A stretch of 64,000 nucleotides of DNA from Escherichia coli (GTDB lineage: Bacteria; Pseudomonadota; Gammaproteobacteria; Enterobacterales; Enterobacteriaceae), in NCBI RefSeq assembly GCF_003334405.1, contig NZ_QOWM01000002.1. One strand, written 5' to 3'. This document shows positions 20,328 to 24,165 of the stretch, one piece after another. A program made the translations under genes and the position numbers. Below the pieces are notes generated by a model, which was not told where the DNA came from, searched no databases, and saw only the letters and a list, made by a program, of their open reading frames with translations. Position 1 is the first letter of the stretch, and each line of letters opens with the position of its first letter.

Positions 20328-22112
20328 ATGTGGTCAGACAAAGAGTCATCAGAAGACTACCTAAATTTTGGTGAAGTATCTCAGTTAGCCGTGGATGTAC
20401 TTACCACGAAAGATATGTTACCAGTATCTATCGGAATTTTTGGAAACTGGGGGGCAGGTAAATCCTCTCTGTTAAAACTGATAGAGCAAAAACTTGAGCA
20501 AGACGACAAAGATTGGATTGTTATCAATTTTGACTCTTGGCTCTATCAGGGGTACGACGACGCCCGTGCCGCACTTCTTGAAGTCATCGCTACAGAATTG
20601 ACAAAAGCTGCTGAAGGTAATTCTACCCTTATATCAAAAACTAAGAGACTCCTTAGTCGAGTTGATGGTTTTAGAGCTATGGGATTACTAGCTGAGGGTA
20701 CAGCTTTAATGGCAGGATTACCTACTGGCGGTTTGCTTTCTAGGGGGATTGGTGCATTAAGAAATATCACCGATGGCATCCAGAGCCAGGAAGAGTATGA
20801 GGCTTTAGGCAATATAGCTAAAGAAGGTAAAGAAACTGCTTGTGGTTTGATTAAACCACAAACAAAAAAAAGCCCCCCTCAGCAGATTGATGCCTTTCGT
20901 AAGGAATATGGGGAAATTCTAGAAGAACTTGGAAAGCCACTCATTGTGGTAATAGATAACCTAGACCGCTGTCTCCCTGCCAATGCTATCCATACACTTG
21001 AAGCTATCAGGCTATTCCTTTTCTTGACTAATACAGCCTTTATTATTGCAGCAGATGAGGACATGATTCGCTCTTCTGTGGCTGATTACTTCAAAGGGGC
21101 ATCACAGCGCCATCAAATAGATTATCTGGATAAGCTAATCCAGGTTCCTATTCGGGTGCCTAAGGCTGGGGTCCGTGAGATCCGTTCGTATCTGTTCATG
21201 CTTTATGCCATTGAACATGGCTTAGAAGGCGAAAAAATAACTATGCTCCGTGAGGGCTTAGAGAAGGCGTTACAGCAATCCTGGAAAGATGAACCAATCT
21301 CACGTCAGGAGGCCTTAAAAATGACTGGTGAAGCGGATGATAGCAACCTCGCGCTGGCGTTTGCGCGTGCTGACCGTATTGCTCCCATTTTAGCCAACTC
21401 TCCAATTATTCATGGTAATCCCAGGATCGTTAAACGCTTGTTGAATGTTGTGAAAATGCGATCTCAAATTGCGAAGCGACGAGCAATGCCTTTGGATGAA
21501 GCAATTATTACTAAGCTAGTAATTTTTGAACGCTGTGTTGGAGTGGATGGCACCGCTGATTTATATCATCTCGTGGATATTGAACAAGGTGTTCCCCAGA
21601 TACTTAAACAGCTTGACGATAATGGCGGTCAAATACCTACTGATGCACCAAAGACATGGACTGATAGTCCAACGACTAAATCTTTCATCAGTCAATGGGC
21701 CCAACTTGAACCTCGTCTTGGTGGGATTGACTTAAGGGCCGCCATATATCTGTCCCGAGAAACTATGCCAATAGGTGCATATGTGGTTGGTTTATCGCCA
21801 TCTGGACGGGAAGTACTAAATGCACTAATTGAATTGAAAAACACTAGTTCTCCTACAGCAGAAAACCTTTTGAAAGCACTTCCTCGTGAGGAGCAAATAC
21901 CTGTAATGGAAGGTTTAATTAACCAGTTACGGCAGGTATCAGATTGGGATCGTAAGCCCAGAGGCTTTTCCGGCGCATGTCTGTTGGCCCGCTACTCAAC
22001 AGATGCAGCCAGCATATTAATTCGTTATCTACAGGAATTACAGTTGGGGATGAAACGACCAGCGTGGATGACTGCAGCATTAAAAGATGAACAATGGAAT
22101 AAGGACGCTTAA
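20328..22112 (+). CDS. qatA: KAP-family P-loop NTPase, QatA-like
   Basis: 594 aa; Walker A 'GNWGAGKSS', Walker B 'VVIDNLDRC'. Confidence 0.7.
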   Translation: MWSDKESSEDYLNFGEVSQLAVDVLTTKDMLPVSIGIFGNWGAGKSSLLKLIEQKLEQDDKDWIVINFDSWLYQGYDDARAALLEVIATELTKAAEGNSTLISKTKRLLSRVDGFRAMGLLAEGTALMAGLPTGGLLSRGIGALRNITDGIQSQEEYEALGNIAKEGKETACGLIKPQTKKSPPQQIDAFRKEYGEILEELGKPLIVVIDNLDRCLPANAIHTLEAIRLFLFLTNTAFIIAADEDMIRSSVADYFKGASQRHQIDYLDKLIQVPIRVPKAGVREIRSYLFMLYAIEHGLEGEKITMLREGLEKALQQSWKDEPISRQEALKMTGEADDSNLALAFARADRIAPILANSPIIHGNPRIVKRLLNVVKMRSQIAKRRAMPLDEAIITKLVIFERCVGVDGTADLYHLVDIEQGVPQILKQLDDNGGQIPTDAPKTWTDSPTTKSFISQWAQLEPRLGGIDLRAAIYLSRETMPIGAYVVGLSPSGREVLNALIELKNTSSPTAENLLKALPREEQIPVMEGLINQLRQVSDWDRKPRGFSGACLLARYSTDAASILIRYLQELQLGMKRPAWMTAALKDEQWNKDA

Positions 22113-22864
22113 TGGGAACATCACAATCAAGTAAAGGTCCAGGAGGTGGCTCTCCGCTGGTTCCACCATGGGCTGATGATCAGCCACAGCAACCGTTACC
22201 CTCGCCGCAAGAAAGGAGGTTTGCGCCATTTCGAGAATCGTTGGGAAATGCGGTATCAAATGGAAATCGAGCAGATTTCAGAAAAGCCATAGGGCACTAC
22301 GCGCGAAAAGCCTCCGGAGGGAGCAGTAACGCTGCTCGGCGATTAGGGAGTGTCACGCAAGCTGGGGCCGAATTATTTGGGGCTTTAGTGGGAATGCCTT
22401 CGGCTCCCGGAGAACCAAGCATCGATTTGGGCAGTTTGGCAAGCCTTCCATGCGAAATAGCAATATCAACTATTGCTCAAGCTTTAACATCACAGGATGG
22501 TGACTCAGAAAAGATCTGTGCGGCCATGAACCATGCTTTAGTGGAGGCTCTTGATGGCGTAGAAATTTTCGATCCTCAAAAAATAACTGATGGTGTGATT
22601 GTTGACACAATGATTGGTTATCTAGCGGAAAGTATTTTCCTTCAGATGGTAATGGATTCTAATAGGGCATGGAACAAAGCAGATACACCTTCAAAGGCAA
22701 TTCATGCAGAAATTGAACTCCGGGAATTGATTAAAGTTGTTGTTGATAAACATATGGCACCAAAACTTGCCGGTAACATAAGATCGTTCACACGAAACCA
22801 AATGGTAAAAATTGAACGTCAGGCCATTATTGAGGCCTGGCAAGAATGGGAGGCATACCAGTGA
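22112..22864 (+). CDS. qatB: QatB-like protein, no recognisable domain
   Basis: 250 aa; start overlaps qatA stop; N-terminus 'MGTSQSSKGPGGGS'. Confidence 0.55.
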   Translation: MGTSQSSKGPGGGSPLVPPWADDQPQQPLPSPQERRFAPFRESLGNAVSNGNRADFRKAIGHYARKASGGSSNAARRLGSVTQAGAELFGALVGMPSAPGEPSIDLGSLASLPCEIAISTIAQALTSQDGDSEKICAAMNHALVEALDGVEIFDPQKITDGVIVDTMIGYLAESIFLQMVMDSNRAWNKADTPSKAIHAEIELRELIKVVVDKHMAPKLAGNIRSFTRNQMVKIERQAIIEAWQEWEAYQ

Positions 22865-24165
22865 CACAATTAGTTTTCCATCATAAACATCACCATTTGC
22901 CGCCAGCAAGTGAGAAAGTGTTACCTGTTCAGCTATATGGATTAAGTGGTCAGAGGCGCGGAGATATATCTGTTATCGGGAATCCTGCGATTGATCGGAT
23001 CAGACGTTTGGGAGTACAGCTTCCAGCTAAGGTCATGGATTTTCTGAGTGTTGCATTAGCAGTAACTGCAGCAGATACTTTCGTTCAGCGTGAAAGTTCC
23101 GAGGATGGTTGGACCCGCCAATTGTCGTTACGACTCCCCCTTCATGAACCATCCAGATGGATTAGTCTAAAGAAAGAACTTGAGAGTGCTTTGCATTTTC
23201 TTAGTGGAGACATCTGGGATTTCGAATTTTGTGACGATGGTTATGCACCGCCAGAGCCTTATAGCCAGCATTCAAGGCATCGTCTGATTAAGCTAAAAGG
23301 GCTTGACTGTGTCAGCTTATTTTCAGGAGGTCTGGATTCAGCTATTGGTGCAATAGATCTTCTGGCTGCAGGGCGCGCTCCACTTTTGGTTAGTCATGCT
23401 TATAAGGGGGATAAGTCTCGTCAAGATCAGATTGCTGAAAAATTAAGTGGCCAATTTTCGCGCTTTGAGATTAATGCTGACCCACACATTTATCAAGGCG
23501 TGACTGATATTACGATGCGAACTCGTAGCCTCAATTTTCTTGCCTTTGCGGCCGTAGGTGCTTGTGCCGTACAAGAGATATCTCAACAAGAAAAGATTGA
23601 TTTGTTCGTACTTGAAAATGGATTTATCTCATTAAATGCACCACTTACTCCACGGCGGATAGGTTCGCTGAGCACACGAACAACACATCCACATTTTATT
23701 ACGAGCATACAAAAGATCTTTGATGCGCTCGGTATTTCTTGTCAAATAATCAATCCATATCAGTTTAAGACAAAAGGAAAAATGATCTCCGAATGTTCAA
23801 ATAAGCAGCTCTTATCTAAAATTGTGGAAAGTACAGTATCCTGCAGTCATTGGAAACGAATGGGGCAGCAATGTGGGGTATGTATACCGTGTATCATTCG
23901 ACGAGCATCACTTCATGCAGGGGGAATTAGTAGAGATGTTGAATATATTTTCCAGTCCTTAGCTAAAGTAATGAATGAAATAGATCGCAGGGACGACCTG
24001 ATCGCCCTTAGGATTGCGATCACGCAGAAATCGACTTTGAAAATAGGTACATGGATTGCCAAAAGTGGCCCTTTGCCTACGGCAGAATTTGATAATTTCA
24101 AGCAAGTATTTAAGGATGGCCTGGATGAGGTTGAAAGCTATTTACTGAGTGAGAACATAGTATGA
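22846..24165 (+). CDS. qatC: QueC-like PP-loop ATPase, QatC-like
   Basis: 439 aa; PP-loop motif 'SGGLDS'; overlaps qatB by 19 nt. Confidence 0.7.
   Translation: MGGIPVTQLVFHHKHHHLPPASEKVLPVQLYGLSGQRRGDISVIGNPAIDRIRRLGVQLPAKVMDFLSVALAVTAADTFVQRESSEDGWTRQLSLRLPLHEPSRWISLKKELESALHFLSGDIWDFEFCDDGYAPPEPYSQHSRHRLIKLKGLDCVSLFSGGLDSAIGAIDLLAAGRAPLLVSHAYKGDKSRQDQIAEKLSGQFSRFEINADPHIYQGVTDITMRTRSLNFLAFAAVGACAVQEISQQEKIDLFVLENGFISLNAPLTPRRIGSLSTRTTHPHFITSIQKIFDALGISCQIINPYQFKTKGKMISECSNKQLLSKIVESTVSCSHWKRMGQQCGVCIPCIIRRASLHAGGISRDVEYIFQSLAKVMNEIDRRDDLIALRIAITQKSTLKIGTWIAKSGPLPTAEFDNFKQVFKDGLDEVESYLLSENIV

Follow-up and report, generated by a model that had tools for sequence, protein, structure and literature searches.

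The qatABCD operon and its setting

The window analysed, a stretch of 64,000 nt of Escherichia coli DNA, carries at positions 20328-24887 what is, judging by its gene content, a complete qatABCD anti-phage operon lying within an E. coli genomic island. The four genes are co-oriented in the order KAP NTPase, QatB, QueC-like QatC and TatD-like QatD, and all four products were matched by PADLOC models:

20328..22112, + strand, qatA, encoding a KAP-family P-loop NTPase of 594 aa (PADLOC QatA, E = 0)
22112..22864, + strand, qatB, encoding a protein of 250 aa of the short-tail subtype (PADLOC QatB, E = 1e-129)
22861..24165, + strand, qatC, encoding 434 aa from a GTG codon, the probable true start (junction comparison in 80 loci; PADLOC QatC, E = 1.4e-138)
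24162..24887, + strand, qatD, encoding a TatD-family nuclease of 241 aa (PADLOC QatD, E = 5.8e-97)

The same A-B-C-D order recurs in 69 of the 80 related loci, the remaining ones being cut or disrupted. The operon neighbourhood comprises QatA, QatD and a type I CBASS. Phage protection has been demonstrated for the qat operon of P. aeruginosa and for other E. coli qat operons; among complete E. coli genomes, about 5 % carry the short-tail subtype.

The NCBIfam equivalog cutoffs were exceeded by QatC (408 bits vs 280) and QatD (331 bits vs 230) and undershot by QatA (386 bits vs 600) and QatB (72 bits vs 100). The NCBIfam QatB model does not include the N-terminal 68 residues and hence omits the functionally critical tail, which is the reason why QatB of this operon still bears the RefSeq label 'hypothetical protein'. 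The recognition of this gap, together with the correction of the qatC start described below, is a practical by-product of the analysis.

Gene junctions and the qatC start codon

In RefSeq, qatC begins at ATG 22846 and encodes 439 aa. The first-pass annotation had relied on the resulting 19-nt overlap with qatB to propose strict stoichiometric coupling of the two proteins. The overlap is literally correct for that start codon, but the start itself is probably miscalled. ATG 22846 sits inside the codons for the invariant Glu-Trp-Glu of QatB (GAA TGG GAG), and at the equivalent position other loci have GTG or TTG, or a stop codon shuts the position out of the qatC frame. Nearly all of the 80 loci compared offer instead a qatC start that overlaps the end of qatB by 4 nt, or in rare cases by 1 nt, and this common start is usually preceded by a GGAG-type Shine-Dalgarno sequence. 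Its counterpart here is GTG 22861, with GGAGG at 22849-22853, 7 nt upstream. Since this start is favoured across the 80 loci, the real qatB/qatC overlap is most likely 4 nt (GTGA); the 19-nt version is probably an annotation artefact and the RefSeq qatC start probably five codons too long.

A 19-nt overlap as a sign of special QatB-QatC coupling was rejected, as the junction comparison points to 4 nt. The stop codon of qatA shares 1 nt with the start codon of qatB (TAATG), and the qatC and qatD genes overlap by 4 nt (ATGA). Every qat gene overlaps or abuts its neighbour, so tight coupling is a property of the whole operon and not of the QatB-QatC pair, and the overlap is a poor argument for strict stoichiometry. 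The qatA/qatB junction varies among subtypes from a 9-nt gap to a 23-nt overlap.

Conservation of the QatB N-terminal tail

The ORF at 22112-22864 (+ strand) translates as MGTSQSSKGPGGGSPLVPPWADD... and begins with two conserved stretches:

22112..22153, + strand, codons 1-14, MGTSQSSKGPGGGS (ORF translation; MGTS in 98 of 106 representatives)
22154..22171, + strand, codons 15-20, PLVPPW, the second conserved tail motif with P15, P18 and W20 (diverse alignment)

The Met-Gly start followed by a Gly/Ser-rich tail, as described earlier from the sequence, is thus present, residues 2-14 containing five Gly and four Ser. Removal of Met1 is expected to expose Gly2, the proposed acceptor amine.

The MGTS start was found in 112 of 120 close homologues. 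The 106 representatives mentioned above are full-length QatB sequences standing for clusters of at most 50 % mutual identity, and were obtained in an unseeded profile search of the whole library; homologues without MGTS look like miscalled starts or fragments. A scan of genome loci had been partly seeded with the pattern MGTSQS[SN]xGP, which makes its 100 % motif count biased, and the evidence of conservation was therefore drawn from the unseeded search. The most conserved QatB columns were M1, G2, T3, S4, P18 and W20, at a family mean column identity of 29 %; in the diverse alignment P18 was conserved in 98 % and W20 in 87 % of sequences. The information content reached 4.30 bits for residues 1-4 vs about 1.75 for the body of the protein. 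The QatB N-terminus is no chance low-complexity stretch, and its motif is conserved far beyond chance.

All synonymous codons are used at the conserved N-terminal positions of QatB, which indicates selection on the peptide. An RNA-level or dual-coding constraint behind the conserved start was rejected on the basis of this codon usage and of the variable overlap with qatA. Comparison of the residues indicates that the divergent short-tail subtype retains Gly2, the tail and the PP-loop under strong purifying selection.

QatC motifs

The earlier reading of QatC as a protein that keeps the PP-loop of QueC but belongs to a defence operon agrees with the motif SGGLDS at residues 160-165 and with the four PADLOC matches. 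Three motifs were located, given here in the 439-aa numbering:

23323..23340, + strand, PP-loop SGGLDS, residues 160-165, the ATP pyrophosphate-binding motif (invariant in 41 QatC sequences)
23671..23691, + strand, STRTTHP, residues 276-282, including T277 and T279 (aligned to P. aeruginosa QatC; invariant in the 41)
23842..23892, + strand, Zn-site cysteines C333, C343, C346 and C349, C-x9-C-x2-C-x2-C (invariant in the 41)

Invariance extends to S160, G161, G162, D164 and S165 of the PP-loop, to the Zn cysteines and to the QatC-specific STRTTHP. In homologues the equivalent PP-loop mutation S156A/S161A abolishes defence, and the four homologous Cys coordinate Zn in crystal structures. STRTTHP aligns with the STRTTHP of P. 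aeruginosa QatC, which contains T278/T280, and in a published superposition the QatC Thr/Thr pair stands where QueC and Cap9 have the Tyr/Asp that binds the deazaguanine; the Thr/Thr assignment made here combines this structural superposition with the alignment to P. aeruginosa QatC. A profile search of the PDB with QatC returned QueC 2pg3 at E = 0.5 only, with the Thr/Thr region outside the alignment, and Y-x-D is absent throughout the present QatC.

QatC shares with canonical QueC, the preQ0 synthase, a Rossmann-like PP-loop core, SGGxDS and a Zn-Cys cluster. In contrast to QueC, it matches the Pfam QueC model at E = 3e-4 only and TIGR00364 at 21 bits vs a cutoff of 150, it is missing the catalytic and substrate motifs, and it has about 150 additional residues at the N-terminus and 70 at the C-terminus. 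A homologous QatC fails to complement a queC deletion.

Predicted structures and comparison with solved Qat complexes

The AF2 model of QatB alone (100-sequence alignment; pLDDT 97) consists of an N-terminal tail (residues 1-36) and an all-helical domain, the chain being helical from residue 38. Its sole matches among solved structures were the QatB chains 9y01_A/9y02_A (TM 0.68). The best match of the QatC model was QatC 9y01_B (TM 0.80, 31 % identical), followed after QatC by QueC 3bl5 (TM 0.67), Cap9 9nto_B and then other two-substrate PP-loop enzymes. A QatB-(GGGGS)6-QatC fusion modelled from 25 paired sequences gave a pTM of 0.89 with a linker pLDDT of 32-39, and this prediction is compatible with a defined QatB-QatC complex.

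The AF2 expectation was that the QatB tail would be confident only in the presence of QatC. The opposite was seen: the tail was confident without QatC (block means 84/96/97), whereas residues 1-3 had a pLDDT below 50 in the fusion model.

Structures of QatB-QatC from P. aeruginosa and E. coli have been solved by three groups (PDB 9zee/9zef, 9y01/9y02 and 9vlk/9vll). Common to these systems and the present operon are the A-B-C-D order, the MGTS start, PxVPxW and helical domain of QatB, and, in QatC, SGGxDS, the STRTTHP Thr/Thr pair, the four-Cys Zn site and extensions at both termini. The present QatB is shorter, at 250 aa including some 36 residues of tail, vs 282-287 aa with longer tails in the solved chains, and its sequence resembles theirs only weakly (E = 8e-8 and 3e-4). 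The published experiments were all performed on the long-tail subtype, and the crystallised complexes do not include the short-tail one.

QatB as the proposed protein substrate of QatC

That the QatB N-terminus is the protein substrate of the QueC-like QatC is well supported and not new: papers of 2025-2026 had put forward the idea that QatC modifies QatB at its conserved Met-Gly-Thr-Ser start, and they speak against a 7-deazaguanine base being what is attached. Since both the qatABCD operon and the QatB-as-substrate model had been described, the present finding adds no new biology. In both E. coli crystal complexes the active site of QatC accommodates Gly2 of QatB, which lies about 1.2 A from the position of the CdnD amine in Cap9, and a contact between ATP and Gly2 is seen; in the P. 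aeruginosa structure the QatB tail is not resolved and was only modelled into the active site. Defence by homologues is abolished by G2D, an N-terminal His-tag, tail deletions, including those of residues equivalent to PLVPPW (16-22 and 14-20), and the PP-loop SSAA mutation. QatBC by itself suffices against lambda-vir. For Gly2 insertion and the tail and PP-loop requirement the evidence thus comes from homologues, and their extension to the short-tail subtype would follow from residue conservation.

The first-pass annotation had suggested that the QueC-like enzyme conjugates a 7-deazaguanine-type base to the terminus of a partner protein. The part concerning the terminus of QatB is supported by the Gly2 structures, the mutants and the conservation; the part concerning the base finds no support in the Thr/Thr pair or in published assays.

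Proposed mechanism and alternatives

We favour, though by a small measure, a model in which QatC would adenylate a substrate other than 7-carboxy-7-deazaguanine (CDG) and the Gly2 amine of QatB would attack the product to give an N-terminal adduct, with phage restriction as the outcome. QatB and QatC would form a 1:1 complex, the stoichiometry published for the homologues, and Met1 would be cut off by methionine aminopeptidase. The conserved tail (GTS...PLVPxW) would then thread into the QatC active site and set the Gly2 alpha-amine beside the ATP alpha-phosphate. QatC, as a putative PP-loop ATP pyrophosphatase, would adenylate a first substrate, most likely a carboxylate other than CDG and possibly one present during infection only. 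Attack of the Gly2 amine on the adenylate would leave QatB bearing an N-terminal adduct, and the modified QatB, alone or with the QatD nuclease and the QatA NTPase, would restrict the phage. The covalent modification of QatB, its chemistry and its consequences are what we infer. A substrate other than CDG is favoured because of the Thr/Thr replacement, the inactivity with CDG and other deazaguanines and the failure to detect NDG. The more specific proposal that QatC places a non-deazaguanine (a carboxylate metabolite or phage molecule available only in infection) on Gly2, creating a new N-terminal modification that acts as an infection sensor, is plausible but falls somewhat short of probable.

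The nearest known parallel is Cap9-CdnD of type IV CBASS (PDB 9NTO), in which a QueC-fold PP-loop enzyme is likewise combined with a partner having a Met-Gly start and a tail. As in the Qat homologues, the Met-cleaved Gly2 enters the active site, and neither Gly2 nor the PP-loop serines can be dispensed with. Unlike Cap9-CdnD, Qat has Thr/Thr for Tyr/Asp, is without Cap10 (TGT-like) or Cap11, uses as the partner a helical protein instead of a CD-NTase, and forms a 1:1 rather than a 2:2 complex; no adduct was detected in published assays, mass spectrometry of the E. coli homologue having found none on QatB in vivo or in vitro. A literature search reaching to July 2026 returned no paper identifying a QatB adduct.

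A fully Cap9-like QatC, which would adenylate CDG supplied by the queuosine pathway of the host and attach it to QatB Gly2 as a 7-amido-7-deazaguanine adduct (N-terminal deazaguanylation, NDG; +176 Da), is considered unlikely. It would agree with QueC 3bl5 and Cap9 9nto_B being the closest non-Qat structural relatives of QatC, with the shared N-terminal logic (MGTS here vs MGGS in the type IV CBASS cyclases, Gly2 occupying the same spot) and with the description of the reaction as probably analogous in two papers. However, the base-binding Y115/D117 of Cap9 (Y129/D131 of QueC) are replaced by the invariant Thr/Thr, here T277/T279, and defence is lost not only in T-to-A mutants of QatC but also when the pair is swapped to Y/D. 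The motifs YxQxHxxE, VPxRN and YPDC are absent from the present QatC, and no TGT-like Cap10 was found in the operon by PADLOC or NCBIfam. Published assays recorded no pyrophosphatase activity on CDG or other deazaguanines, two soaked crystal forms had no CDG density, and NDG was not found by mass spectrometry.

It is also doubtful that the QatB tail is a pseudo-substrate plug or tether which silences QatC and holds QatD until infection displaces it and QatC acts elsewhere. The other target of QatC would then be, for example, a nucleotide or a phage component. Such a role would account for the tail occupying the active site unreacted whether ATP is bound or not, for the free Gly2 found by Edman sequencing of a recombinant QatB homologue and for the loss of QatD binding, with QatC binding spared, on deletion of residues 1-46. 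The confident AF2 folding of the short tail on QatB alone hints at an alternative docked position. Against it, the geometry of Gly2 is that of the nucleophile in Cap9 and argininosuccinate synthase, an invariant Gly2 with freely varying codons suits a reactive terminus better than a plug, and QatC bound neither DNA nor RNA.

Direct N-terminal AMPylation, in which the Gly2 amine would itself attack the ATP alpha-phosphate and yield a phosphoramidate without the need for another substrate, recalls the contact of Gly2 with the alpha-phosphate in the ATP-bound E. coli structure but is highly improbable, as published assays found no ATP turnover with QatC, QatBC or QatBCD and no pyrophosphate release with QatBC or QatBCD, no mass change on QatB has been reported, and the invariant Thr/Thr pocket would be left without a role.

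Within the favoured model of a non-CDG adduct on Gly2, the tail of the short-tail QatB might stay docked on QatB itself until triggered. Long-tail qat operons so far resist reconstitution, and experiments could turn to the naturally compact short-tail subtype instead.

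Identity and annotation of the operon

All four proteins of the anti-phage operon matched PADLOC models: QatA (KAP NTPase, E=0), QatB (1e-129), the QueC-like QatC (1.4e-138) and QatD (TatD-family nuclease, 5.8e-97). QatC residues are numbered according to the 439-aa form (RefSeq start).

20328-24887, + strand: qatABCD operon, four closely packed genes
22112-22864, + strand: QatB, N-terminus MGTSQSSKGPGGGSPLVPPWADD
QatC residues 160-165: PP-loop SGGLDS
QatC residues 276-282: STRTTHP
QatC residues 333/343/346/349: cysteines

The Met-Gly start of QatB, the PP-loop of QatC and the defence operon, the starting points of the first-pass annotation, are real. 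The Pfam QueC match to QatC was weak (E=3e-4). The NCBIfam equivalog cutoffs were passed by QatC and QatD and missed by QatA (386 vs 600) and QatB (72 vs 100); the QatB model NF041924 (179 positions) begins at residue 69 and leaves out the essential N-terminal tail. It is because of these cutoffs and this late model start that RefSeq names QatC and QatD and lists QatB as a 'hypothetical protein'.

Conservation of the QatB N-terminus

The high conservation of MGTS in QatB has been remarked in the literature. Among 120 close homologues it was found at the start of 112, the remainder being fragments, fusions or proteins with starts assigned to an internal Met. As an unbiased check, a profile search was run against 1.84 billion cluster representatives and the best 150 matches were taken; 98 of the 106 that were at least 235 aa long began with MGTS, and the exceptions included single proteins starting with LGTS (from an alternative start codon) and with MGTG, and three beginning at the internal VPPW motif. 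In a 100-sequence alignment with a mean column identity of just 29 %, M1, G2 and T3 were invariant and S4, G9, P15 and P18 were at least 90 % conserved. Information content was 4.30 bits at residues 1-4, 2.14 at 5-14, 3.35 at 15-20 and approximately 1.75 in the remainder, with S, G and P making up 29, 22 and 11 % of residues 5-14. The signal therefore consists of the motifs MGTS and P-[LM]-V-P-x-W with a compositionally biased spacer between them. Judged from these alignments, the conservation is more than chance, and the signal goes beyond the Gly/Ser-rich tail proposed earlier.

Every synonymous codon was in use at G2, T3, S4, S6, G9, P10 and P18 across 75 distinct loci, so selection acts on the peptide and not on RNA or an overlapping frame. 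The motif was present in 80 of 80 genome loci, but because it had served as a seed for that scan, this count is not taken as evidence of conservation.

A compact subtype of the Qat system

The operon belongs to a different subtype from the studied Qat systems. QatB matched the solved QatB chains at E=8e-8 and 3e-4 only; for QatC, the E-values against solved chains were 7e-62 and 1.5e-52. The QatB tail is short, with helix 1 starting at residue 38 and a total length of 250 aa versus 282-287 aa in the solved chains. Despite this divergence, sequence comparison indicates that the functional residues are all kept: SGGLDS, the zinc cysteines and STRTTHP are invariant in 41 QatC sequences 32-87 % identical to that of the window, and T277/T279 align with T278/T280 of P. 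aeruginosa QatC. This QatC lacks YxQxHxxE, VPxRN and YPDC, the motifs of canonical QueC.

The AF2 model of QatB (pLDDT 97) matched solved QatB chains only. A fusion of QatB to QatC via a 30-residue linker was modelled with 25 paired sequences; its QatC part matched, in order, QatC (TM 0.80), QueC (0.67), Cap9, the QueC-like enzyme of type IV CBASS (0.61), then GMP synthetase and argininosuccinate synthase. The pTM of 0.89 with a linker pLDDT of 32-39 is consistent with a defined complex. QatB residues 1-3 had pLDDT below 50 in the fusion, which was judged by its confidence scores. In QatB folded alone, residues 1-37 (22112-22222) were predicted very confidently as coil (block means 84/96/97/97), and residues 1-10 scored lower with QatC attached than without it. 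The tail of this short-tail subtype may be docked on QatB itself, and the flexibility ascribed to it is not established.

The qatB/qatC overlap and the qatC start

Strict QatB-QatC coupling had been deduced from a 19-nt overlap, which depends on the RefSeq annotation of ATG 22846 as the qatC start. This ATG arises from the codons of an invariant Glu-Trp-Glu of QatB (GAA TGG GAG), and in other loci this position reads GTG or TTG, or a stop codon takes it out of the qatC frame. In nearly all of the 80 loci compared, a start codon lies 4 nt (in a few 1 nt) ahead of the qatB end, usually after a GGAG-type Shine-Dalgarno sequence supplied by the same QatB Trp-Glu codons. The equivalent start in the window is GTG 22861, with GGAGG at 22849-22853, 7 nt upstream, and a 4-nt GTGA overlap. 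The comparison favours this start, and the RefSeq annotation probably makes qatC 5 codons too long. Since qatA and qatB overlap by 1 nt and qatC and qatD by 4 nt, coupling is operon-wide and is no special feature of QatB and QatC.

Nature of the proposed QatB modification

The model of QatB as a QatC substrate is already known from publications, so the first-pass annotation was right in outline about the QatB terminus; the chemistry it specified is disfavoured. QatB-QatC structures have been solved by three groups, the complex being 1:1. QatBC alone suffices for protection against lambda-vir, and defence is lost with G2D, with an N-terminal His-tag, with tail deletions and with a PP-loop double mutant. 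Both E. coli structures resolve the QatB tail with Gly2 in the active site, ~1.2 Å from the Cap9 substrate amine position, and Met1 removal was confirmed by Edman sequencing.

On balance we lean towards a mechanism in which QatC would adenylate a first substrate other than 7-carboxy-7-deazaguanine (CDG), possibly depending on infection, and the Gly2 amine of QatB would attack it. The modified QatB would then act, with QatD and QatA broadening the range of restricted phages.

Literal deazaguanylation is rather unlikely. Cap9 does attach CDG to Gly2 of its partner cyclase, but the Tyr/Asp holding the base in QueC and Cap9 is an invariant Thr/Thr in QatC, and the change of Thr/Thr to Tyr/Asp kills defence. 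Soaked crystals contained no CDG, pyrophosphate release was not stimulated by CDG or other deazaguanines, mass spectrometry in vivo and in vitro found no N-terminal deazaguanylation adduct, and QatC did not complement a queC deletion. It is similarly improbable that the tail sits unmodified in the active site, plugging it as a pseudo-substrate and tethering QatD. Direct AMPylation of Gly2 seems very improbable. No paper identifying the adduct was found in the literature to July 2026; the identity of the modification, together with the compact subtype distinct from the studied systems, is where the residual value of the proposal lies.

Genomic setting

The operon was present in 259 of 5,426 complete E. 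coli genomes, nearly always at an identity of at least 99 %. The island housing it adjoins tRNA-Phe and an integrase gene and carries a CBASS directly downstream of qatD, on the opposite strand.

25440-27351, - strand: two-gene type I CBASS
26023-27351, - strand: CBASS CD-NTase (PADLOC Cyclase, 9e-177)
25440-26015, - strand: CBASS SLATT/2TM effector (2e-82)
29081-30616, - strand: right end of the Qat + CBASS island, with the integrase ORF (29081-30406) and tRNA-Phe (30541-30616)

The CBASS cyclase begins with MSHREL, not Met-Gly, and is therefore unrelated to Cap9-type chemistry. IS66 and IS4 remnants lie between tRNA-Phe/integrase and CBASS, as seen in a matching genome.

Within 13500-18301, identity to K-12 is 100 % through glcC, glcD and the initial part of glcE, as far as ~17010, where glcE is cut and its frame continues antisense to an autotransporter-like fragment (16982-18301, - strand). 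None of the 5,426 complete genomes of E. coli spans 80 % or more of 13500-20300 in a single stretch. The ORF that precedes qatA (19066-20196, + strand) gave a weak PD-Lambda-4_B match (3.7e-6) and contains an (AEV)n tandem repeat of variable copy number, its product having 376 aa versus 551 aa in strain JKHS016.
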